The notes: a model not told the origin generated them from the letters alone. Shown: positions 23,897 to 33,726, counted from the stretch's first letter. The stretch is 64,000 bases of DNA from Methanomassiliicoccaceae archaeon (GCA_003555025.1 PWHV01000011.1:12101-76100); one strand, 5' to 3'. Made by a program: numbers and translations.

Positions 23897-23912
23897 AATA
23901 TTATTCACAACC

Positions 23913-23920
23913 TTTATCTT
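23913..23920 (+). promoter_or_regulatory. TATA-like box for sensor kinase 1
   Basis: cctttatctt about 25-30 nt upstream of ATG 23944, implying a short or leaderless mRNA. The motif resembles the one before the paralog. Confidence 0.4.
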
Positions 23921-23943: not shown

Positions 23944-25872
23944 ATGGTCAAAGCCCGCTTACTGCTCGTGGACCCCGACCCCTCCTTCTTGGACCGCGCC
24001 GCTTCGGAGCTGTCCGCCCTGGAGGGCGTCGAGGCATCAGCGGCAGCGGACGCAACCGCGGCCTTGGACATCGTTAGAGATGGGAAGATCGATGCGGTGG
24101 TCAGCGGCCACGAGGGCCGCCTTGACGCCCTGTCATTGATGGCCGAGCTGCGCCGCATCGACCCCGAACTCTCATTCATGGTCGTGGCGGACGAAGGGTC
24201 CGAGGATCTGGCCATAGAGGCGCTGGAGAAGGGGGCCGACCATTACTGCTCCAAAAAGAAGGACCCGCTCCCTTCTCTAATGAACAAGGCGGTCCAGATC
24301 GCCGAGCGTTGCCGTCGCTACCGCGATAACGAGCTGGACAGGTACCGCCTGCAGACGCTGGTGGACCTGGCGGAGAAAAGGTCGGCGCCCTTCCACGAGA
24401 TGGCCCATTTCATGCTGGAGAGCATGGTGGAGATAACCGGAAGCAAGATGGGATACATCGCCACGGTCGACACGGATGAGGGGACCTTGAACATGTTCGC
24501 CTGGTCCCAGGGCGGTTTGACCCGATGCCGCATGAAGGACCGCCCCGTCTTCTACCGGTTGGAGGAGACCGGTCTGTGGGGGGAGCCGGTGCGCCAGGGC
24601 AGGTCCGTCATGATAAACGACTACAGCAACGAGACCGAGCTGCAGAAGGGCTCCCCCAAAGGCCACGTGAGCATATCCCGCTACATGGCGATACCCGTCT
24701 ACAACAAAGGAAGGATAGTCGCCACCTGCGGCGTCGCCAACAAGGCCGAGCCTTATGACGACGACGACCTGCGCCAGCTCACAATGATGATGCATGGCAT
24801 GGAGCACCTCTACGACATAAACGCCCGGGACGCGGTCCTTTACGAGACGGAGAAGCGTTACGAGGGCATACTCCGCGCCATCCCGGTGGCGGTGGCGGTG
24901 CTCGATGCCGACGGCAGGCTGATGGACGCCAACGACCTCTTCATCAACATCGATGGTGGCCACCTGCACCGGGACGATAACATCCTCCATAAGAACGAAG
25001 GGGTGATCGCCGAGATACGCCGGCTGTTCGAGGAGTGCCGCAGGAAAGGGAGGAAGGTCAAGGACCAGATAAGCCATAGGTACTCGGTCGACCGGGATGC
25101 CCACTGGCGATGCTATGTCTCCCCCAGGTGGGACCAGAGCTACCGTTTCAATGGAGCGGTGCTGGTCATGGAGGACGCCACCGAGGAGACGGAGGCGATG
25201 AACGCCCTGGAGCAGAGCGCCAACCGCATCAAGACCATAGACCAGATCACCCGGCACGACGTGACCAACCATCTCCAGGTCCTCCATGGGTACCTGGAGA
25301 TGCTGAAGGACATGGTCGTCAGCGACAACAAGGTCGATATACTGTCCCGCATGGAGCGCAGCCTGATGTCCGTCGAGGACCACATGGATTTCGCCCGCAC
25401 CTATCAATCGCTGGGCGTGCAGAGGCCGCAGTGGCTGCTGCTGCGGCGCGAGGCGGAGTCCGCGCTCCGGCACGGCACACCTCTCGACGTGGACATAAAC
25501 CTGGACGGCCATGAGGTATGGGCGGACCCCTCTTTCAACCGCGCCCTCTACAACCTCGTGGAGAACACCATCAGGCACTCCGGCCATGCCCGCAGGGTGT
25601 GGCTTCACAGCCATATCGACGAGGACGGCTCGCTCATCATAGTCTATGAGGACGATGGGGCGGGCATCCCCGCCGGGAAGAAGGAATCCATCTTCCGCAA
25701 GGGCGTTGGTGCCAACACCGGACTGGGAATGTTCCTCGTCAAGGAGATACTGCGGCTCACCGGCATGGACATCCAGGAATGTGGAAGGGAGGGAGTGGGC
25801 GTCCGTTTCGAGATAAAGGTGCCCTCTGAGGCCCACCGCTCCGCGCAGGGGGATCGGGCCGGTCCAGCATGA
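23944..25872 (+). CDS. REC(pseudo-receiver)-GAF-PAS sensor histidine kinase
   Basis: N-terminal CheY-like fold, a GAF domain (IATVDTDEGTLNMFAWSQ...GVANK), a PAS domain, an H-box ITRHDVTNHLQVLHGYLEML, an N-box NLVENTIRH, G1 DDGAGIP and G2 GLGMFLV. Confidence 0.85.
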   Translation: MVKARLLLVDPDPSFLDRAASELSALEGVEASAAADATAALDIVRDGKIDAVVSGHEGRLDALSLMAELRRIDPELSFMVVADEGSEDLAIEALEKGADHYCSKKKDPLPSLMNKAVQIAERCRRYRDNELDRYRLQTLVDLAEKRSAPFHEMAHFMLESMVEITGSKMGYIATVDTDEGTLNMFAWSQGGLTRCRMKDRPVFYRLEETGLWGEPVRQGRSVMINDYSNETELQKGSPKGHVSISRYMAIPVYNKGRIVATCGVANKAEPYDDDDLRQLTMMMHGMEHLYDINARDAVLYETEKRYEGILRAIPVAVAVLDADGRLMDANDLFINIDGGHLHRDDNILHKNEGVIAEIRRLFEECRRKGRKVKDQISHRYSVDRDAHWRCYVSPRWDQSYRFNGAVLVMEDATEETEAMNALEQSANRIKTIDQITRHDVTNHLQVLHGYLEMLKDMVVSDNKVDILSRMERSLMSVEDHMDFARTYQSLGVQRPQWLLLRREAESALRHGTPLDVDINLDGHEVWADPSFNRALYNLVENTIRHSGHARRVWLHSHIDEDGSLIIVYEDDGAGIPAGKKESIFRKGVGANTGLGMFLVKEILRLTGMDIQECGREGVGVRFEIKVPSEAHRSAQGDRAGPA

Positions 25873-25873
25873 C

Positions 25874-25881
25874 TTTATATT
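25874..25881 (+). promoter_or_regulatory. TATA box for sensor kinase paralog 2
   Basis: tttatatt lies 23-30 nt upstream of ATG 25904, immediately after the upstream stop. Confidence 0.45.
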
Positions 25882-25903
25882 CACTCGCCGATACGTTTGA
25901 CGG

Positions 25904-27823
25904 ATGTACAGGGCGCTTCTCGTTGAGAAGGACCAGGCCTTCATGGAAAAGGCCGTTACCTTTCTCACCAGGATCAACCGCGACCTCAGGGTGATTCCGT
26001 GCCCGGAACCCGACGATATGCCTGAGCTCATAGACAAATACCATCCTGACATCGTGGTCTCCGGCCACGACCCCACCGCGGGGATGGACGGCTTCACCCT
26101 CTTCAAATCGTTGCTGCGCCGAAGCGACAACTTCCCCTTCATAATCATGGTCTCCAACGGCTCCCAGGAGCTGGCGGTGGAAGCCATGAACCTGGGCATC
26201 GACTTCTACCTCATCAAGGACCGTCCCCCTCGGGAGCTCTTCAACGACCTGACCGACAAGATAATCCTGGCGGTGGAGAAGAGGCGCATAGACGAGGAGC
26301 GGTCCCTAAGCGAGCGGCGCCTCAAGGCCCTGGTGAGGCTGGCGAAGATGCACAGCTACGGGTTCTCGGAGGTGGCGCACTTCGTCCTCGAGGAGATGGT
26401 GAAATTGACGCGCAGCGAGATGGGTTATTTCGCCCTCTATGACGAGAAGCGCGACCTGCTCACCATGTACTCATGGTCACAGGCGGGCATGAAACAGTGC
26501 CGCGTGGAGGATAAGCCCATAGAGTACCCCATGGAGACGGTGGGCATATGGGGTGAGCCGGTGCGGCAGAAGCGGGCCATAATCGTGAACGACTACTCCG
26601 CTCCCAGCCCCCTCATAAAGGGCATACCCAAGGGGCACGTGGCTCTGGACAGGCTGCTGATGGTGCCTCTGATGCACAACGGCAAAGTAATCGGCACCGC
26701 CGGGGTCGCCAACAAGGCCCAGCCTTACGACGGCTCCGACATCAACCAGATGGCCCTGCTGATGGACGGCATGGCCAGCATATACATGGGCCGCATGTCG
26801 GGAGAGGCGCGGTACGAGACCGAGAGACGCTACGAGGACATGCTACACTTCGCCCCGGTGGGCATAATGGTGGTGGACAACCAAGGGCTGATAGTGGAGT
26901 GCAACCTAAAGGCGAGGAACCTCCTCGACCAACTCTCTGACGAGGGCCACATCGGCAAGTCGCTCATCGATTACAAGGATGATTTCACCGTGCAGCTGTA
27001 CTCGGCGGTTATGGAGTCGTTGCGCTCGCGCAGCCCCAGCAGCGCCAAGATCAGATTCAAGACGCCGCAGACCAACATCTCCATCCAGGTGTCCATACAG
27101 CCCCGCATGAATGGCCAGGACCCCAAGGGGGCGATAATAACCCTGGAGGACATGAGCGAGATCGAGACCTCGCTGGAGAAGCTGGAGAGGGCCTCCTTCC
27201 AGCTGAACGTGGTGGACCGAATGACATTCTTGGAGGTCTCCAACCAGCTGCAGATAATCAACGGCTACGTCAACTTCGTCAGTTCCATGAGCGACGACGA
27301 GGTCCTGGAAGAGCACATGGAACGCATACTTGACGCATCCGGCCGCATACAGGAGAGGATGCGCTTCTCCCGCGACTTCCGCAACGTGGGAATAATGAAC
27401 TCCGAGTGGCAGAGCGTCACCGATGCCGTGGCGCAGGCATCGCTGGCGGCCGATGTCCCGGAGGGGATGCTGCAGATCAACACCGGGAACCTGGAGGTCC
27501 TCGCCGACCCACAGCTCCCCAAGGTCTTCGAGAACCTCATGGCGATGAGCCTGCAAGAAGAAGGCGTGACCGCCATCAAGGTGGGGTTCAACATAATCGA
27601 TGGCCGCATGCGTATCGTCTACCAGGACGACGGCAAGGGCGTGGCCGAGGAGCACAAGGACCAGGTCTTCGATGCCAGCGCCTCGTGGGCGGCGAACGGA
27701 ATGTATCTGGTCAAGGAGGTGCTCTCCGTGTCCAAGATCACCGTGATGGAGAATGGCGTCCCCGGCGAGGGCACCCGCTTCGAGTTGATAGTCCCCAACA
27801 ACAGCTACCGGCTGCGCTCCTGA
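25904..27823 (+). CDS. REC(pseudo-receiver)-GAF-PAS kinase-like protein (paralog, apparently degenerate catalytic motifs)
   Basis: Same architecture as the upstream gene and alignable throughout. The H-box position reads MTFLEVSNQLQIINGYVNFV (no His). The N-box reads ENLMAMS. G1 DDGKGVA is retained. Confidence 0.8.
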   Translation: MYRALLVEKDQAFMEKAVTFLTRINRDLRVIPCPEPDDMPELIDKYHPDIVVSGHDPTAGMDGFTLFKSLLRRSDNFPFIIMVSNGSQELAVEAMNLGIDFYLIKDRPPRELFNDLTDKIILAVEKRRIDEERSLSERRLKALVRLAKMHSYGFSEVAHFVLEEMVKLTRSEMGYFALYDEKRDLLTMYSWSQAGMKQCRVEDKPIEYPMETVGIWGEPVRQKRAIIVNDYSAPSPLIKGIPKGHVALDRLLMVPLMHNGKVIGTAGVANKAQPYDGSDINQMALLMDGMASIYMGRMSGEARYETERRYEDMLHFAPVGIMVVDNQGLIVECNLKARNLLDQLSDEGHIGKSLIDYKDDFTVQLYSAVMESLRSRSPSSAKIRFKTPQTNISIQVSIQPRMNGQDPKGAIITLEDMSEIETSLEKLERASFQLNVVDRMTFLEVSNQLQIINGYVNFVSSMSDDEVLEEHMERILDASGRIQERMRFSRDFRNVGIMNSEWQSVTDAVAQASLAADVPEGMLQINTGNLEVLADPQLPKVFENLMAMSLQEEGVTAIKVGFNIIDGRMRIVYQDDGKGVAEEHKDQVFDASASWAANGMYLVKEVLSVSKITVMENGVPGEGTRFELIVPNNSYRLRS

Positions 27824-28440
27824 CCGCCGTTATCCCTCGCCATCCGTTTGACCTTCTCCAACGCCTCGGCCAGCAGCCCATAGCCGCCCACGGTCTCCTC
27901 GTGGCTGAGGTCCATCTCGGCGGCGAACTGCTGGGATCGTTGCCGCAGGGACTCCACATCCCCCACGCCCGTGTCGATGAACAGGCAGCGGGAGTAGCTT
28001 TCGAACATCATCCGCAGCAGGTCCATGGGGTCCACGCCCTCCACGGTGTCCAGGTGCAGCTCCTTTATCGAGCCCTCGATGCCCAGATTGGTCCAGCCTG
28101 GAGAGTTGTACCAGGTGCCGGCGCATCTGCGCCGCTCCTCGGCGTACCCGGACGGGGTGAGGAAGACGCCGATGCAGTCATCGGTGTGCACCATCTCCGC
28201 CGGTATGCTGACGTCCTTGGTCACGCCCATGAGGCTCTGGCAGTAGCAGTATCCCAGCAGCAGGGCGTCGACCTTGCCCTTTAGGGCGTTGGCCCTCTCC
28301 ACCACCTCCGTCCTCATCCGCTCCGGCTCTATATGGAGGCCGAATTCCAGGAATTCCACGTGGACGATGTCCTCGTCCCCCGCGACCAGCGCCTCGACCT
28401 CCTCCTTGAATATGTCGCAGGCGATGACACCCAATTTCAT
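27805..28440 (-). CDS. DUF1638 domain protein
   Basis: MKLGVIACDIFKEEVEAL...LLLGYCYCQSL...CLFIDTG resembles the DUF1638 family. ATG 28440 overlaps the upstream TGA (ATGA). Ends in TAG. Confidence 0.65.
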   Translation of the reverse strand: MKLGVIACDIFKEEVEALVAGDEDIVHVEFLEFGLHIEPERMRTEVVERANALKGKVDALLLGYCYCQSLMGVTKDVSIPAEMVHTDDCIGVFLTPSGYAEERRRCAGTWYNSPGWTNLGIEGSIKELHLDTVEGVDPMDLLRMMFESYSRCLFIDTGVGDVESLRQRSQQFAAEMDLSHEETVGGYGLLAEALEKVKRMARDNGGQERSR

Positions 28441-30452
28441 CGGCACGCCCCTCCGGCGTAGAACTGCCGCGGCTTGCCGACGGCGGTCACCATTATTTGC
28501 TTCTCCAGGAGAACCTCGCCGTCGTACTCCTGCCCGAATCCGAACTTGCGGTCGTGGTTCTCCACCTTGATCTCCACCGAGTCCGCCCCCGCCACCCGGG
28601 CCATGCGGTCGACGTGCTCCGAGCCGATCTTTCGGGCGTACTCCGCCGCCTCGCTCACGGAGTCGAAATCCCTCTTCTCTAGGGTGGAGAACAGGGTACA
28701 GGGCGGGTCCTCGGCGGTCCCCATGCCCGTCTTGGGCTTGATCAGGATGTTCATCTTCTCCACCACGCTGCCGGTTATGGCCCCTACGGCGTTGCCCACC
28801 TCGGCGTGCTCCGGCAGCAGCAGTCCAGTGGAGAAACGCTCCGCGATCATCGGGAAATAGGCCCCGATGGGGGCGCCGATGCCGATTATGGGCTTGTTCA
28901 GGCTCAGCCGGCAGGAGAAGTCCTTGCCCATGGCGCCGGTTATGGACTTGTCCAGAAGGTCGTAGGCCACTGTTCCCTCGCTCTCCTTTCCGGTCTCCTC
29001 GTAGACCAGCTTCCGGAGGAGCTCCATGGAGAGCTTCTCCACCACCATGGTCTTGGCGATGGAGAGGAAGTCCTCGCTGGACACGCCCATGCGCTTGGCC
29101 TGCTGCTCGAGGGCGATGCGCGAGGCCTCGGCGCAGTACTCGACGTAGGACCCCTCGACATGGAGCAGGTCAGTGGGCGTCAGCCCCATGCGGGTTATGA
29201 TGCCCATCTCCTCCATCTTCTTCACGTTGAAGGAGAACTGGTGTATGCCCAATGCCTCTTTGGCCTCCAAGAGGGAGTGCGGGCCCTCTTGGAGGAGGCG
29301 TAGGAACACCTTGTCGTTTTCGGACAGGGACCCGTCCCCGTCGTCCTTGAGCAGCACGAAGAATTCCACGTCCTGTATGACGTTGTCGATGTCCATGCTC
29401 TCCGGCGTGAAACGGGAGGCTCTGGCCGCGGCCTTCTTGAGCCTCTCCGTCACGTCGGGGCGCTGAGAGGCGCCGATGCACAGCGGTATCACCCGCAACG
29501 GTGTTAGCATGAGCTTGTTGCCGTTGACCACGAAGCGGCTATCGCCCCCGATGCCGGAGGTGGATATGTCCGCCGCCAGCACCCTGGTGCGGCGACCTCC
29601 GATCAGGGCGCCCTCCGGGTCCAGGCGCGGATGGCCGTTGCGGAGTATGCCGATGTCGGTGGTGGTCCCTCCCATGTCCACAACGATCGCTTCCTCCTCG
29701 CCGGTGAGCATCTTCGCCCCGGTGAGGCTGGAGGCGGGGCCGGAGAGTATGGTCTCCACCGGCCTCTGCAGCGCCACCCCCTCGTCCATCATCGAGCCGT
29801 CGCCCTTGACGATCATCATGGGCGCCTCGATGCCCAGCTCGCCGAGGACCTTCCTGACCGAATCCATGAGGTCGGCGATGATGGGTATCAGGCGGGCGTT
29901 CATCACCGTGGTGAGGGTCCTCTCGTTGAATCCCAGGCTCGACGATAGCTCATGCCCGCAGACCACCGGCTTCGAGCATACATCCTTGACCATCCTCTTG
30001 ATGCGGTCCTCGTGCTCGGGGTTGCGGACGCTGAGGAAAGAGGACACGGCGAAAGCGTCCACCGCGCCAGCGTACTGACGGATGAATCTCTCCGCCGCCT
30101 CCTCGTCCAAGGGCTCCGCCTCCTCCCCTGATAGCATGTGGCCGCCGGAGACCCTGCCGATCACGTCCACCGGTATTGACCGGTCGTAGTCCCTGCCCAC
30201 CACCAGCAGGGCGACGCGACAGCCTTTGCCCTCCACGATGGAGTTGGTCGCCAAGGTGGAGGAGACTGAAACCAGCTCCACCTCGGACAAACGACCGCTC
30301 CCCATATGGGATATGGCCTTGGAGATGCCGATGGAGAGGTCGTCCCTGGTGGTGAGTGACTTGGCCTTGCCGAGAACCTCCAGGCATCCGAAGTCGTACA
30401 ACGCCGCGTCGGTGTAGGTGCCACCCGTGTCTATTCCCAGGCCCAGGGCCAT
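28437..30452 (-). CDS. hydantoinase A / oxoprolinase-family ASKHA ATPase
   Basis: MALGLGIDTGGTYTDAAL is the phosphate-1 motif, and VVDMGGTTTDIG is the second ASKHA motif. 671 aa. A strong AGGAGGTGA RBS is present. No HyuB-like partner lies nearby. Confidence 0.8.
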   Translation of the reverse strand: MALGLGIDTGGTYTDAALYDFGCLEVLGKAKSLTTRDDLSIGISKAISHMGSGRLSEVELVSVSSTLATNSIVEGKGCRVALLVVGRDYDRSIPVDVIGRVSGGHMLSGEEAEPLDEEAAERFIRQYAGAVDAFAVSSFLSVRNPEHEDRIKRMVKDVCSKPVVCGHELSSSLGFNERTLTTVMNARLIPIIADLMDSVRKVLGELGIEAPMMIVKGDGSMMDEGVALQRPVETILSGPASSLTGAKMLTGEEEAIVVDMGGTTTDIGILRNGHPRLDPEGALIGGRRTRVLAADISTSGIGGDSRFVVNGNKLMLTPLRVIPLCIGASQRPDVTERLKKAAARASRFTPESMDIDNVIQDVEFFVLLKDDGDGSLSENDKVFLRLLQEGPHSLLEAKEALGIHQFSFNVKKMEEMGIITRMGLTPTDLLHVEGSYVEYCAEASRIALEQQAKRMGVSSEDFLSIAKTMVVEKLSMELLRKLVYEETGKESEGTVAYDLLDKSITGAMGKDFSCRLSLNKPIIGIGAPIGAYFPMIAERFSTGLLLPEHAEVGNAVGAITGSVVEKMNILIKPKTGMGTAEDPPCTLFSTLEKRDFDSVSEAAEYARKIGSEHVDRMARVAGADSVEIKVENHDRKFGFGQEYDGEVLLEKQIMVTAVGKPRQFYAGGACR

Positions 30453-30456
30453 GCAA

Positions 30457-30777
30457 TCACCTCCTGCCGCTCCATCCCATGTCCTTGTTGTACTTGTTAA
30501 CGACCTGCGATATATGGTCGGCCATCAGCCTCTCGTGGTTCTTCCCGAACACCTCGGGCGTGTCCCGGATGTAGAACTCGGCGTCGCACTTGGCGCAGCG
30601 CACCTTCGGACAATCCCTCATCGCCTCTGAACAGCCTTGGCAGGCTATGGTGCGCGCGTACATCATCGAGAACTCGAAGCCGCAGAACGGGCACTCGAAC
30701 TTCCGCAAGGACCTCACCGTCTGCGGCGAGAAGCCCTTGCTCCTCATGGCATCATAGTATCCTTTACTACCTAGCAT
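30457..30777 (-). CDS. Cys-rich small protein (zinc-ribbon or metal-binding)
   Basis: FECPFCGFEF...IACQGCSEAMRDCPKVRCAKCDAEF contains 8 Cys including three CxxC. ATG 30777 is preceded by GAGGTG. The track GTG at 30786 is an alternative start. Confidence 0.55.
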   Translation of the reverse strand: MLGSKGYYDAMRSKGFSPQTVRSLRKFECPFCGFEFSMMYARTIACQGCSEAMRDCPKVRCAKCDAEFYIRDTPEVFGKNHERLMADHISQVVNKYNKDMGWSGRR

Positions 30778-30787
30778 CAACAACACC

Positions 30788-31258
30788 TCAGTGATGGTCT
30801 ATCCCCTTCTCCACCTCATAATGATCATCTACTATCTCGAAGTCCATGTCGTAATCGGCGAAGACCTCGTCCAGTATGGAGCGGGTGAGGTCCCTGACCA
30901 CATCGTCCCATATCCCGTGGACGATGACGTGCATGGTGAATTCGAACTCCCTCAACGATTCCACCGGCAGCGAGTCCTTGAACGCCGCCTTCTCTTGGGC
31001 GGCATCGACGATGCTCCCCATGATGTTGCCCTCCGAGCTCCACACGAAGGACTTCACATGGCCGACGATGTCCGCGCCGTTCTCCATGCATATTTGGACG
31101 GAACGCTTCATAATGTGGTCGACGAACCTCAGTATCTCTTCCTTGCTCACTCCGCTCTCGGACCGGACCTTTATCACTATGGCGTACTTCCCCAGCTCAT
31201 CGACCGCCCGGTGCAGGTCGAGATGCAGGTCGTCGTGGTCGTCTCCAGACATGGTCAT
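30788..31258 (-). CDS. acidic, His-rich-termini hypothetical protein
   Basis: 156-aa ORF, MTMSGDDHDDLHLDLH...DDHYEVEKGIDHH. The start overlaps the CobW-like stop (ATGA). No family recognised. Confidence 0.55.
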   Translation of the reverse strand: MTMSGDDHDDLHLDLHRAVDELGKYAIVIKVRSESGVSKEEILRFVDHIMKRSVQICMENGADIVGHVKSFVWSSEGNIMGSIVDAAQEKAAFKDSLPVESLREFEFTMHVIVHGIWDDVVRDLTRSILDEVFADYDMDFEIVDDHYEVEKGIDHH

Positions 31259-31926
31259 TCCCTCTTGGCGTACTGCTTGCGGAGCAGCTCCTCCTCCACC
31301 GCATCGTCGTAGCGCGGCGATATCCTGTCGACTATCGTGTCGTAAACCAGATCAAGCCCCTCCCCGGTCACGGATGAAAGGTGGGCGATCTCCGCCCGCG
31401 GGTTGATGCTGGCTATGAACTCCTCGGTCTTGGCCACGGCCTCGGGCGAAGCGGCATCGACCTTGTTCACGAAGCAGACGTCGCTCTCGCGTATCTGGGT
31501 CTCGACCAGTCGGCGCACGGCCTTCAGCAGCATGTCGATGCGCGTGGCATCGACCAATGTTATGACGGGCGCATGCTCGATGATCATCTCCGCCTTGGCC
31601 TCGGAGTACTCGGCGGCCCTTTTCAGGCCCCAAGGTATGGCAACCCCGGAAGGCTCGACGATGACTATCTGGGGGTCGAAGACCTCGTGGAGCTTGACCA
31701 GCGTCTCGGCGAAAGAGCCGGCTATCTGGCAACAGATGCAGCCGCCGGCTATCTCCCGGGCCTCGAGCCCGTTGGCCTCCACGAACTTGGAGTCGATGCT
31801 GATCTCACCCACGTCGTTGACCACTATGGCTATGCGGCAGCCTTTGTTGACCAGCCCCTCCGCTATCTTCATGAGGGCGGTTGTCTTCCCGCTGCCGAGG
31901 AATCCTGCAATCTGCGAGACCTTCAT
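31255..31926 (-). CDS. CobW/HypB/UreG-family (G3E) P-loop GTPase
   Basis: GFLGSGKTT Walker A, the GGCICCQ (GCxCC) metal-binding motif, and NKVD G4. ATG 31926 (MKVSQIAGF). Confidence 0.85.
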   Translation of the reverse strand: MKVSQIAGFLGSGKTTALMKIAEGLVNKGCRIAIVVNDVGEISIDSKFVEANGLEAREIAGGCICCQIAGSFAETLVKLHEVFDPQIVIVEPSGVAIPWGLKRAAEYSEAKAEMIIEHAPVITLVDATRIDMLLKAVRRLVETQIRESDVCFVNKVDAASPEAVAKTEEFIASINPRAEIAHLSSVTGEGLDLVYDTIVDRISPRYDDAVEEELLRKQYAKRE

Positions 31927-31999
31927 TTTTATCACATTCTACGGTAAAGTGTTTGGGAAAGGGTTTGCCGCATAAAGTCGGTTGTGGAAGTTTCCCCGG

Positions 32000-33109
32000 T
32001 CAGCAATCGACCTTGCCGTTCTCCTTGGTCACGTCGACCACGGCCTTGATGTTCTCCATCTTGGTGGCGATGTCAGGCGGCACCTCGCAACCGCTGGATA
32101 TGCAGTAGCGGGAATTCAACCCCCTCTTGCAAAGGGAGGTCTTGACCTCTTGGCAGAGATCCTCCGTCACCTTGGAGATCTTCTCCGGGGTGGCGCGGAT
32201 GAACATCTGCGGGTCAATGTTCCCCGCCAGCAGGCAGTTGTCCGCATAGCCCTGGTCGATGACCTCGCCCGCGGTGGGCGACCCGGGGATCAGGGGGTAG
32301 TAGGCCATGCTGAAGATCACTGGCTTGAACTCCGTCACCTGGGTGTCCATATGGGGGAGGTCGGAGCAGTTGTGCACGCAGAAAGCCATGCCGCTGTCCG
32401 TGGTGAGCTTGTTCAGCATGCCAGCGTACTTGCTCTGCCCCTCGAACTCGTGGTACTCCGAATCACCGAGGCAGGAGTAGTTCGCCCACAGATAGTCCCA
32501 GACCAGGCCGTTGCAGCCCGTCTCGCCGAAGGCCTCGACCATCTGCCTGTCGAACTCCACCATAGTCTCCATGCCCTTGTGGACCACCGATGGGTCGGTG
32601 AACATGTCCATGAAGACCCTCTCAGCTCCAGCGGTCTGTGTCAAGGCCAGCAGCGGACCCTCCAGGAAACCGGCGGTGATTACCTCGCCCGCCAATTTCT
32701 CGGAGAAGATCTTGGTCCCCTCGACTAGGACGTTGGTTCTCCCCTTCTTGATGTCTGGGACCTCTAACTTCTCATAGTCCTCGGGGCTGTGGATGATGTG
32801 CTTGTCCACGAACGGGGTGTTCTCATCATCCATGCGGACGTTGGCTCCGAGGTCGCCAGCCAAGACGGAGAGGTCCATCAGGCCGATGGCGAAGTCGAAG
32901 TCGAAGTACTTGTGCCCAGCGATGAAACTCTCGGCGAAGAGCTTGGGATCCCGGCACCATTCGGCATAGGTGACGCCGTTGCCGCCGTTCAGCAGCTTGC
33001 GGTTGATGCCGCACGCTATTGGATAGGCGGGCAGGCGGTCGACCTCTTCATTCCCGAGCGCGGCCATTCCCCTCTCGAGATGGTTCAAAACAAGGCCTCC
33101 TTCAGCCAT
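32000..33109 (-). CDS. URO-D superfamily MT2-type methyltransferase (methylcobamide:CoM methyltransferase-like, MtaA/MtbA/MtsA family)
   Basis: 369 aa. VHNC (the HxC Zn ligands of MtaA-type enzymes) plus a distal SSGCEV Cys. N-terminus LERGMAALGNEEVDRLP is typical of the family. Confidence 0.8.
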   Translation of the reverse strand: MAEGGLVLNHLERGMAALGNEEVDRLPAYPIACGINRKLLNGGNGVTYAEWCRDPKLFAESFIAGHKYFDFDFAIGLMDLSVLAGDLGANVRMDDENTPFVDKHIIHSPEDYEKLEVPDIKKGRTNVLVEGTKIFSEKLAGEVITAGFLEGPLLALTQTAGAERVFMDMFTDPSVVHKGMETMVEFDRQMVEAFGETGCNGLVWDYLWANYSCLGDSEYHEFEGQSKYAGMLNKLTTDSGMAFCVHNCSDLPHMDTQVTEFKPVIFSMAYYPLIPGSPTAGEVIDQGYADNCLLAGNIDPQMFIRATPEKISKVTEDLCQEVKTSLCKRGLNSRYCISSGCEVPPDIATKMENIKAVVDVTKENGKVDC

Positions 33110-33726
33110 GCCACGGAGTCCTGGGCGTTCGCGTCGCGGTGGTCGGCGCCGATCTCCTCGGCGAAGTCCGGCGATGTCGGCGGGCCGCCGATGACCACTT
33201 TGGCCTTGGAGCGGTAGCCGCTCTCCACCAGCCCGTCGATGACGTCCTTCATGCCGTCCATTGTGGGCGTCATCAAGGTGCTCATGGCCACCACGTTGGT
33301 CTTGATGCTCTCCGCGGTGTCAATGAACGTGGTTATGGGCACGTCCTTGCCGAGGTCCTTGACCTCAAGGCCGCCGGCGGTCATCATGGTCTTGACGATG
33401 TTCTTGCCGATGTCGTGCACATCACCCTCGACAACGCCGATGACCACCTTCTTCTTGTCCGCAAGATCCTCGGTGGGGATCATGGGGAGAAGCATGTCCA
33501 GTCCAGCGTACATGGTGTTCGCCGACATCAATACTTGGGGAAGGTACACCTCGCGGGCGGCGTACCTGTCGCCAACGACCGACATCCCCTTCACGAGGCC
33601 ATCATTGATGGCGTCGAGGGGGCTGACCTTCTCGTCAATGGCCCTCTGGGCGTATGACTTGGCCTGGTCAGGCTTCCCTAGGACCACTCCCTCGCTCAAT
33701 CCGTTCAATATCTCATCTTTGCTCAT
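33085..33726 (-). CDS. corrinoid (cobalamin-binding) methyltransferase protein, MtaC/MtbC/MtsB family
   Basis: N-terminal B12-binding-2 helical cap followed by a Rossmann B12 domain with the DxHxxG motif (GDVHDIGKN). Confidence 0.9.
   Translation of the reverse strand: MSKDEILNGLSEGVVLGKPDQAKSYAQRAIDEKVSPLDAINDGLVKGMSVVGDRYAAREVYLPQVLMSANTMYAGLDMLLPMIPTEDLADKKKVVIGVVEGDVHDIGKNIVKTMMTAGGLEVKDLGKDVPITTFIDTAESIKTNVVAMSTLMTPTMDGMKDVIDGLVESGYRSKAKVVIGGPPTSPDFAEEIGADHRDANAQDSVAWLKEALF

Follow-up and report, generated by a model that had tools for sequence, protein, structure and literature searches.

A histidine-less REC-GAF-PAS protein adjoining an MtsAB-like methyltransferase cluster in Methanomethylophilaceae: a predicted pseudo-histidine kinase and its family

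A histidine-less sensor and its genomic setting

The window analysed here is a stretch of 64,000 nucleotides (nt) from a Methanomassiliicoccaceae archaeon (GCA_003555025.1 PWHV01000011.1:12101-76100), in which two tandem paralogous genes, hereafter copy 1 and copy 2, encode sensor proteins with receiver (REC), GAF and PAS domains in front of a kinase-like core. Copy 2 lacks the phospho-acceptor His. The best reading of it is that it represents a conserved and hitherto undescribed family of GAF sensors that work without phosphotransfer and are tied to an MtsAB-like corrinoid methyltransferase operon. With some reserve, we consider it probable that copy 2 is a pseudo-histidine kinase which controls the adjacent MtsAB-like system without phosphotransfer, and that copy 1 is an accessory kinase. 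This reading is carried by: (i) the sequence motifs; (ii) the phylogeny of the family; (iii) the selection acting on it; (iv) its synteny; and (v) the lack of partner kinases in related genomes.

The two genes are as follows:

23944-25872, + strand: copy 1, a cytoplasmic sensor histidine kinase of 642 amino acids with the architecture REC(pseudo)-GAF-PAS-DHp-CA and a complete catalytic core
25904-27823, + strand: copy 2, a protein of 639 amino acids with the architecture REC(pseudo)-GAF-PAS-DHp-CA, without the phospho-acceptor His, that is, a pseudo-histidine kinase

The source metagenome-assembled genome (MAG) belongs to the Methanomethylophilaceae (Methanomassiliicoccales), measures 1.4 Mb and is 97% complete; its genus is represented by MAGs from soda-lake sediment and brine. 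In the following, G000 denotes the genome under study and G005 (PUJZ01000017, locus L048) a sister species known from a second, independent MAG. The gene pair lies downstream of secY-EMC3-cmk-cbf5, with both open reading frames (ORFs) intact and on the + strand. A preliminary description, made from the sequence, had reported tandem paralogous REC-GAF-PAS genes at 23944-27823, and the coordinates proved exact: Response_reg, GAF_2, PAS and HATPase_c domains were found by Pfam in both copies, which share 32% identity across their full length (E 2e-113) and ~40% in the DHp helices by pairwise alignment. The Pfam scores of copy 1 are 33.1 bits for Response_reg, 80.3 for GAF_2, 27.4 for PAS_4, 24.0 for SPOB_a and 53.8 for HATPase_c. 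Orthologues of copy 1 occur at the same place in G001-G005 (47-70% identity), and those of copy 2 are 69-86% identical. Among the other signalling genes of the genome are 10 further histidine kinases, which were aligned with the two copies, and a set of canonical receivers comprising two REC-only proteins, one REC-DUF835 protein and several hybrid kinases.

Kinase cores

The motifs on which the assignment of the two cores is based are:

25246-25275, + strand: copy 1 H-box ITRHDVTNHL, with His438 as predicted phospho-acceptor, aligned with the 10 other histidine kinases of the genome and with H260 of HK853
25552-25740, + strand: copy 1 motifs for adenosine triphosphate (ATP), namely N-box NLVENTIRH (25552-25578), G1 DDGAGIP (25651-25671) and G2 GLGMFLV (25720-25740)
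27221-27250, + strand: copy 2 degenerate H-box MTFLEVSNQL, with Leu443 in place of His
27533-27712, + strand: copy 2 degenerate ATP site, with N-box NLMAMSLQE (Met549), G1 DDGKGVA kept and G2 changed to (A)ANGMYLV

Copy 1 was claimed beforehand to have a complete core, and this is borne out by the alignments: its H-box His, N-box Asn, G1 and G2 all match those of HK853 and of the other histidine kinases of the genome. All 10 of the latter keep (T/S)RHDxxN, NLxxN(S/T)xxHG and GxGLFL. Judging by these motifs, copy 1 is probably an active histidine kinase.

The degenerate motifs reported for copy 2 were likewise recovered. Leu443 stands opposite H260 of HK853, and also opposite the His of 11 paralogues; Met549 occupies the position of the Mg-binding N380; and AANG replaces G2. 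In a genome-wide HATPase_c scan copy 1 reaches 58.0 bits, while copy 2, with 29.5 bits, is the weakest of 17. The changed H-box is itself conserved, TFLEV being identical in seven of seven crown-group orthologues of copy 2. The position of the Mg-binding Asn, on the other hand, reads M, M, A, L, N, S and R among orthologues of this genus that are 70-86% identical, and is evidently unconstrained there. The Asp and Gly residues of G1 are invariant across the alignment, copy 2 included. Autophosphorylation of copy 2 on the canonical His would be impossible with such a sequence, and the degenerate N-box and G2 argue, as far as prediction goes, against ATP hydrolysis.

It had also been proposed that signalling by the two proteins does not follow the canonical His-Asp route, and two of the findings named as contrary evidence were an Asp at the acceptor position of the receivers and a His in the copy 2 H-box. 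Neither was found by alignment. The proposal stands for copy 2, which has no His, and for both receivers, which have no acceptor Asp (see below), but it goes too far for copy 1: since all catalytic motifs are kept and the genome has canonical receivers, copy 1 may still feed an ordinary His-Asp route.

Phylogeny, distribution and selection

When the DHp-CA region is placed in a maximum-likelihood tree with nine histidine kinases of the same genome as outgroup, the His-less proteins form a monophyletic clade (19 rows; support 100/99), whose sister group is the copy 1 clade of the genus (support 98/95). A His-containing homologue from another genus (G017/P0026) is basal in this tree. Because the His-less clade is monophyletic, the His was lost once and early, at the root of a clade with members in the Methanomethylophilaceae and related Methanomassiliicoccales. 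Among GTDB species representatives, none of the 22 methyltransferase-adjacent genes of the clade has the His, and H, N, G1 and G2 are all present in the eight upstream genes of copy 1 type. When 1.8 billion representatives were searched exhaustively, ~26 more clusters (50% identity level) of full-length relatives that lack the His came to light. The deep branches of the clade still have the Mg-binding Asn and a near-normal G2; both are lost from G016 and this genus and, through what looks like a separate event, from a Methanogranum-like group.

The His-less protein is under purifying selection. For the same genome pairs, the ratio of non-synonymous to synonymous substitution rates (dN/dS) is 0.08-0.16 for copy 2 versus 0.13-0.39 for copy 1. 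Within copy 2, the GAF domain is the most constrained part (0.02-0.09) and the CA domain the least (0.16-0.44). Since purifying selection is stronger on copy 2 than on copy 1, copy 2 would be a functional, non-catalytic protein and not a decaying duplicate. Its ORF is intact in every genome examined, and the clade persists across many genera at ~30% identity.

Outside this genus, copy 1 is confined to the P0026/P0019 lineage, and wherever it occurs, cbf5 lies on one side of it and copy 2 on the other. Six genomes of the genus and that second lineage (P0026/P0019; L043, L053) have the two genes in tandem, separated by 31-65 nt. The His-less gene stands without copy 1 in G009, G012, G014, G016, G019, G020 and many MAGs; in the 646-bp spacer between cbf5 and copy 2 of G016, a search for a copy 1 remnant found no ORF and no similarity. 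In G009, G012, G014, G019 and G020, which represent five other genera, the His-less gene is the only histidine kinase-like gene of the genome. The other HATPase_c hits in these five genomes are partial or insertion-containing matches to conserved proteins of ~640-750 amino acids, here taken to be putative GHKL housekeeping ATPases (GyrB, TopoVI-B or MutL type). Because the five genomes hold no other histidine kinase, neither a partner kinase nor His-Asp transfer can be required by the His-less protein. Apart from its own receiver, they have just one, that of a REC-DUF835 protein, which is also found in genomes without the sensor.

This REC-DUF835 protein (~305 amino acids; G000:C26:82790-83737, outside the window) has a canonical receiver, in which DD, D, T and K are all present. 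It was observed in all Methanomethylophilaceae genomes examined, with orthologues in G007, G009, G011, G012, G014, G019 and G020, and it is present even where the genome has no histidine kinase of any kind (G007, G011).

Association with the MtsAB-like methyltransferase cluster

The 3' end of copy 2 meets the following cluster:

27805-33726, - strand: MtsAB-like corrinoid methyltransferase cluster of seven genes (Pfam), convergent with copy 2

Its genes encode: (i) a DUF1638 protein; (ii) a Hydantoinase_A/MutL-like ATPase (HydA); (iii) a Cys-rich protein of 109 amino acids; (iv) a protein of 156 amino acids; (v) a CobW GTPase; (vi) a URO-D-type methyltransferase; and (vii) a B12-binding protein. 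The last two correspond to the MtsAB homologues of unknown substrate described in Methanomethylophilus alvi, an archaeon that fails to grow on dimethylsulfide (PMC10673518, PMC4153887).

The His-less gene lies directly beside this cluster in all 19 GTDB loci that have at least 1 kb of flank. The same adjacency is seen in G009, G014 and G020 and in three metagenome contigs (L043, L045 and L047), and it is kept with varying neighbours on the other side and in varying orientation: the gene may be convergent with the ATPase gene, divergent from the gene for the B12-binding protein, or placed between cobW and the ATPase gene. The P0071 contig has no methyltransferase neighbour, but at 6.5 kb it is too short to count either way. 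This conserved link to the MtsAB-like operon is the most informative feature of the locus; the preliminary description had treated the gene pair in isolation. A phylogenetic profile of the sensor against the cluster turned out to be uninformative, with HydA in 38 of 41 relatives irrespective of the presence of the sensor.

In the window, the 3' ends of copy 2 (+ strand) and of the DUF1638 gene (- strand) overlap by 19 nt (27805-27823), and in L043 and L045 there are overlaps of 7-10 nt. Transcripts that converge and overlap in this way could by themselves link sensor expression to that of the operon.

Some further observations concern the genes of the cluster. The Hydantoinase_A/MutL-like ATPase of the window (28437-30786, - strand) is 37% identical to that of Methanosalsum (L122:10397-12469), and ATPases of this type accompany Mts-type genes in both Methanomassiliicoccales and Methanosalsum. 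The small Cys-rich protein is found beside the ATPase in the window and in Methanomassiliicoccales relatives. The ATPase is a candidate factor for corrinoid activation or maintenance, distinct from RamA. Some genomes have two HydA-type paralogues (G014:C1 and G019:C1), the sensor-adjacent one being the more divergent (49% versus 55-59% identity to the window protein), which suggests two methyltransferase clusters, just one of them associated with the sensor. Lastly, three human-gut bins titled Ruminococcus sp. CAG:579, Prevotella hominis and Dialister hominis (L066, L067 and L068, respectively) contain the archaeal His-less sensor together with the cluster of B12-binding protein, URO-D and HydA genes; these contigs are probably Methanomethylophilaceae sequences mis-binned into bacterial genomes.

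GAF domain and predicted structure

The GAF domains of the two copies are located at:

24385-24801, + strand: copy 1 GAF_2 domain, residues 148-286, with family-invariant Cys195 (TRCRM) and His241 (KGHV)
26366-26779, + strand: copy 2 GAF_2 domain, 92.7 bits, residues 155-292, with invariant Cys199 (KQCRV) and His245 (KGHV) and the motif GVANK

The GAF domain has the lowest dN/dS of all domains and is the most conserved part of copy 2. The invariant Cys199 and His245 of copy 2 are compatible with the presence of a cofactor, as far as can be judged from the residues; a heme or thiol redox cofactor in the GAF domain is a trait of sensors of the MsmS/RdmS type (see below). A search of PDB sequences with the GAF domain gave no match at E <= 1, so that no cofactor can be inferred by homology. 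This GAF subtype is widespread in PAS/GAF kinases of anaerobes.

The AlphaFold2 (AF2) model of copy 2 has a mean confidence (predicted local distance difference test, pLDDT) of 84.3. It comprises a (beta-alpha)5 receiver, in which beta-3 spans residues 50-56 with Gly54 towards its C-terminal end, and a DHp hairpin (418-462 and 466-491) followed by an alpha/beta CA domain. REC, GAF, PAS and DHp are joined by long helices, with continuous helical linkers at 109-151, 277-315 and 418-462. The DHp-CA part matches the structures of CpxA, ZraS, HK853 and DivL (4q20, E 4e-10). Copy 2 is a pseudo-histidine kinase in the sense that the histidine kinase fold is kept under selection (AF2; dN/dS 0.08-0.16) and one or more catalytic functions are gone.

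A side observation concerns the GVANK motif. In the MAG Methanomassiliicoccaceae archaeon UBA593 (DAEQ01000001.1; L082:6001-7920), the coding sequence of the family member contains one in-frame TAG, which falls exactly on the invariant Lys of this motif, and the frame stays open for 361 codons past the TAG, to the normal C-terminus. By its position, the TAG looks like a codon for pyrrolysine (Pyl), a lysine derivative, at an invariant Lys, in an order that uses pyrrolysine. The RdmS protein of Methanosarcina acetivorans is likewise a Pyl-containing sensor (PMC12626013).

Receiver domains and parallel loss of the acceptor aspartate

The N-terminal receivers occupy the following positions:

23956-24297, + strand: copy 1 pseudo-receiver, with Gly55 (24106-24108, GGC) in the acceptor column, Pro11 at the position of D13, Ala83 at that of T87 and Lys104 at that of K109 (CheY numbering)
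25913-26260, + strand: copy 2 pseudo-receiver, with Gly54 (26063-26065, GGC) in the acceptor column, Glu8/Lys9 at the DD position, Ser85 at that of T87 and Lys105 at that of K109

Both domains are recognised as receivers by PF00072, with scores above the cut-off (33-43 bits), yet they are the two weakest of the genome (36.5 bits for copy 1 and 42.7 for copy 2, versus 75-94 for the other receivers). The acceptor-Asp column holds Gly in both copies (G55 and G54; VVS-G-H), where Asp stands in all nine reference receivers: CheY (D57), Spo0F (D54) and seven encoded by this genome. The same result is obtained with phmmer against the solved receivers 3jte, 6ifh (a Spo0F homologue), 3b2n and 7w9h (FleR), in which Gly falls opposite the phospho-Asp; the alignment with NtrX is ambiguous at this site owing to a loop insertion. 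The orthologues, too, agree with this register, as they read CDH or IDH (copy 1) and SDH (copy 2) where G000 reads SGH.

The Mg2+-binding acidic pair (D12/D13 of CheY) is replaced by Asp-Pro in copy 1 and Glu-Lys in copy 2; the loop register after beta-1 of copy 2 agrees with the AF2 secondary structure (beta-1 at 2-7, alpha-1 from 11). At the T87 position copy 1 has Ala and copy 2 Ser, and the Lys of K109 is retained in both. On this evidence, the reading of both domains as pseudo-receivers, already put forward in the preliminary description, appears sound: the acceptor Asp is missing and the D13 metal position is not acidic (Pro or Lys). The residue at D13 is non-acidic throughout the whole family, not just in G000, and for this reason the receiver was probably atypical long before the Asp disappeared.

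The same description had placed Ser at the phospho-acceptor position, which is off by one residue. The Ser of VVSGH matches S56 of CheY, immediately before the acceptor column, where several true receivers of the genome also have Ser (VVSDYE, VISDWN). The three independent alignments (PDB, own-genome receivers and orthologues) rule out Ser as the acceptor residue and, with Gly in the acceptor column, the suggested phosphorylation of the loop Ser has no basis in the alignment.

Gly at the acceptor site is restricted to G000 and its sister G005, and in these it is found in both paralogues; the orthologues of other sister species keep Asp. Since both genes of the independent MAG G005 (L048) carry SGH, the motif is neither chance nor an assembly error. 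Codon comparison shows GAC -> GGC in both genes. The loss of the Asp is recent and lineage-specific, on the branch to G000 and its sister. That the two paralogues arrived at VVSGH by gene conversion, in which case the shared motif would be silent on any coupled function, is quite improbable. True, GTG GTC ... GGC CAC GA is identical in both copies of G000, and three adjoining residues of copy 1 have also shifted towards copy 2 (LIC -> VVS). But the Ser codons belong to different families in both G000 and G005 (AGC in copy 1, TCC or TCA in copy 2); a single change separates the AGC of copy 1 from TGC, the ancestral Cys codon that is present in G001 and G004; and the codons flanking the motif differ between the copies (GCG versus ATC; GAG versus GAC). 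Because of these differences in Ser and flanking codons, two independent point mutations on one species branch seem a better explanation of the shared SGH than gene conversion. Such a parallel loss is suggestive of coupled function, either through loss of a shared phosphodonor or through a REC-REC contact; the coincidence has a rough post hoc p of ~0.01-0.1, which is not proof.

Promoters

Each gene is preceded by a TATA-like box, ~23-33 nt before the ATG:

23911-23920, + strand: TATA-like box CCTTTATCTT, upstream of copy 1, ~25-33 nt before its ATG
25873-25881, + strand: TATA-like box CTTTATATT of copy 2, which starts right after the TGA of copy 1, inside the 31-nt spacer

A TATA box for each gene had been noticed before, and in 5-6 related genomes both boxes hold their position at the orthologous loci, in otherwise variable surroundings. 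Before copy 1, a TTTATC/TTTTATA box is found at equal distance in G005, G004, G001, G003 and G002; before copy 2, GACTTTATA(T/C)T and a downstream CGATA are found at equal distance in the same genomes and in G016. This arrangement fits two separate promoters, with messenger RNAs that would be leaderless or have very short leaders. A scan for bacterial-type promoters and terminators was not informative, the organism being archaeal.

Comparison with known systems

The closest functional parallel is found in MsmS and RdmS (the "MA_type 2" kinases of M. acetivorans), which are also cytoplasmic proteins with PAS/GAF and HATPase_c domains, without a phospho-acceptor His and with adjacent Mts-type genes. 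RdmS/MsmS have no H-box, and they bind and hydrolyse ATP and do not autophosphorylate (PMC11784639); their genes adjoin those of Msr regulators of methylsulfide methyltransferases (PMC12626013, PMC6944256). In another class, a locus of Methanosalsum natronophilum (L122) independently shows this same layout, published for Methanosarcina (PMC12626013, PMC6944256, PMC11784639): after the gene for a PAS-GAF-HATPase sensor, whose DHp region contains no His, come those for an Msr-type (FilR1_middle/DUF1724) regulator, a methyltransferase in which B12-binding and URO-D parts are fused, and a HydA-like ATPase. The GAF domain of the L122 sensor, with its leading helix, is 38% identical to that of copy 2 over 182 gapless residues (E 5e-43), the Cys and the GH motif being kept. 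The differences are nevertheless considerable: (i) the whole H-box region is missing in MsmS/RdmS, whereas copy 2 keeps the DHp helix and only the His is substituted; (ii) copy 2 has an RHDxxN-type core, an N-terminal (pseudo)receiver and, in this genus, a degenerate Asn and G2; and (iii) the methyltransferase is split here into MtsB-like and MtsA-like proteins and fused there, the likeness being drawn through the published descriptions and L122.

The same GAF subtype was observed in 13 Methanolobus/Methanosarcinaceae loci (L087-L119), in each case in a kinase followed by a cobW-family GTPase gene. At L101:4663-9205, to which the Pfam analysis was confined, the kinase is MEDS-PAS-GAF-HisKA-HATPase, and a DUF2148 ferredoxin-domain gene comes after cobW. 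The recurring pairing of GAF kinase and cobW, a gene that also belongs to the cluster of copy 2, hints that the GAF signal is tied to metal or corrinoid supply.

DivL of Caulobacter crescentus is another histidine kinase homologue without the His, with multiple PAS domains and a DHp-CA module repurposed for binding and sensing (PMC4211667, PMC5361649). It differs from copy 2 in having Tyr, instead of Leu, at the His position, and in working amid true kinases and receivers, while copy 2 orthologues occur in genomes without any kinase. Copy 1 resembles the archaeal RHDxxN histidine kinases (HPK11-like, with weak SPOB_a/HisKA_2 matches), with which it shares (T/S)RHDxxNxL, NLxxN(S/T)xxHG, DDGxG and GxGLFL; it differs from them by its additional REC-GAF-PAS inputs and pseudo-receiver, and copy 2 by the loss of three of the four motifs.

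As to the REC-GAF part of copy 2, the best structural match is the dual-sensor histidine kinase of 6oap, 6oaq and 6ob8, whose GAF domain binds a bilin (TM score 0.72-0.78, target-normalised; root-mean-square deviation 4.1-4.8 over ~315 columns). Receiver and GAF domain are there two inputs to one kinase. Unlike copy 2, to which it is just 18-20% identical, this protein is an active kinase with a phosphorylatable Asp (a BeF3-bound state was crystallised), and its GAF domain is a light sensor (the PDB titles refer to green-light-absorbing and illuminated states).

The Lys at the D13 position of copy 2 recalls the D13K mutant of CheY, which Bourret et al. are said to have found, in 1990, to be active without phosphorylation. 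Both receivers share with the aspartate-less receivers (ALR) and pseudo-receivers (PsR) the CheY-like PF00072 fold, the missing acceptor Asp and the incomplete acidic pocket; they differ in that Gly replaces the Asp here and in that the loss is very recent and parallel in two paralogues. Of the archaeal receivers, 10-15% are aspartate-less, none of which has been studied functionally (PMC12632262).

Proposed mechanism and alternative explanations

From these observations we infer the following working model. The GAF domain of copy 2 would bind a ligand or cofactor, or sense the redox state, by means of its invariant Cys and His. Through the PAS domain and the long helical linkers the signal would reach the DHp-CA module, which would transfer no phosphate and instead give a conformational or protein-binding output. 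This output would control the adjoining MtsAB-like methyl-corrinoid methyltransferase system, by analogy with MsmS/RdmS, which are thought to act on Mts genes in Methanosarcina. The receiver may have become independent of phosphorylation and serve for input or dimerisation, its vestigial Asp having been lost in both paralogues of G000 and its sister through independent GAC -> GGC changes. Where present, copy 1 would be an accessory, faster-evolving kinase that may add a His-Asp branch or modulate copy 2, and that copy 2 would not need.

Several points weigh against this model. The evidence that links the sensor to the operon is gene neighbourhood, and HydA, as marker of the cluster, is found in 38 of 41 relatives, genera without the sensor included, so that the sensor is dispensable: an accessory of the pathway and not a requirement. 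The homology between copy 2 and the L122 sensor is confined to the GAF domain, as their kinase cores are of different types and do not align. No Msr regulator (PF08350) was found in any of 11 Methanomethylophilaceae genomes, in a search whose control did find that of M. acetivorans; an Msr-type regulator is accordingly discarded as output partner, the partner must differ from that of MsmS/RdmS and the analogy is incomplete. Moreover, the Asp and Gly of G1 are invariant even in copy 2, and the N-box Asn is retained in deeper branches of the clade; copy 2 may bind nucleotide, or its relatives may hydrolyse ATP. Finally, most His-less relatives have retained the acceptor Asp, including those from genomes that lack kinases altogether, which is unexplained if the receiver is purely phosphorylation-independent.

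A first alternative is that the two genes form an obligate kinase/pseudokinase pair, in which the sole role of copy 2 is to tune the autophosphorylation or phosphatase activity of copy 1, as its heterodimeric or allosteric partner. The conserved tandem order with its short spacers, the common architecture with DHp helices ~40% identical and the loss of the Asp from both receivers on the same species branch, a hint of coupled function, can all be accommodated by such a pair. Yet the His-less gene stands alone in most related genera (G009, G012, G014, G016, G019, G020 and many MAGs), five of these genomes have no other histidine kinase, copy 2 is more conserved than copy 1, and each gene has its own conserved TATA box. 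An obligate pair is thus unlikely, and the view of the preliminary description, which took the kinase and the pseudokinase as a unit, is not supported.

It is distinctly unlikely, too, that copy 2 is still a phosphotransferase with another acceptor, be it through Ser/Thr/Tyr autophosphorylation or a separate protein, as proposed for the MA_type 2 kinases. Within this genus the Mg-binding Asn is M, A, L, S or R, G2 reads AANG and the lost His is preceded by Phe and not by Tyr, while the report of Tyr autophosphorylation by RdmS was retracted by its authors as unspecific (PMC11784639). What speaks for such an activity is the invariant DxGxG of G1, the N-box Asn and near-normal G2 of the deeper clade members, the Tyr just before the lost His in many members (TYRDV, TYGKI, IYKEM), the Tyr at the His position of DivL (PMC4211667), and the binding and hydrolysis of ATP by RdmS (PMC11784639). 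Very improbable, and strongly disfavoured, is the view of copy 2 as a decaying duplicate, a pseudogene in the making whose adjacency to the cluster is meaningless inherited synteny. Degenerate catalytic motifs, a CA domain with dN/dS up to 0.44 and the presence of HydA in sensor-less genera, where the cluster seems to function without the sensor, might be read in this way; but no examined genome has a broken ORF, dN/dS is low overall (0.08-0.16) and lower still in the GAF domain (0.02-0.09), the clade is kept across many genera at ~30% identity, and the adjacency has outlasted rearrangements on either side and is seen again in Methanosalsum.

Significance

A control of the MtsAB-like system by copy 2 without phosphotransfer can be extended to a much broader, and rather doubtful, proposal. 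According to it: (i) methanogenesis from methylated thiols (MtsAB-like) would have, in the His-less REC-GAF-PAS proteins, its dedicated regulators independent of phosphotransfer across the Methanomassiliicoccales, also in gut species that have no other "two-component" protein; (ii) they would share an ancestral GAF domain with MsmS/RdmS of the Methanosarcinales; (iii) this domain would sense corrinoid, metal, heme redox state or methyl-thiol; (iv) the pseudo-kinase core would act on methyltransferase or activation proteins or on the basal transcription machinery; and (v) the parallel Asp -> Gly change would reflect REC-REC coupling.

Pseudo-histidine kinases are otherwise known from few bacterial cases. 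The archaeal family lets both degenerations be traced stepwise: the His was lost once, the ATP motifs later (apparently separately, in two lineages), and the acceptor Asp last. The GAF domain common to the RdmS/MsmS-type sensors links two distant methanogen orders by one sensing module. In any case, a sensor hard-wired to the operon of the MtsAB homologues would offer a handle on both the substrate and the signal of this system in the Methanomethylophilaceae, a family that includes human-gut methanogens (PMC10673518).

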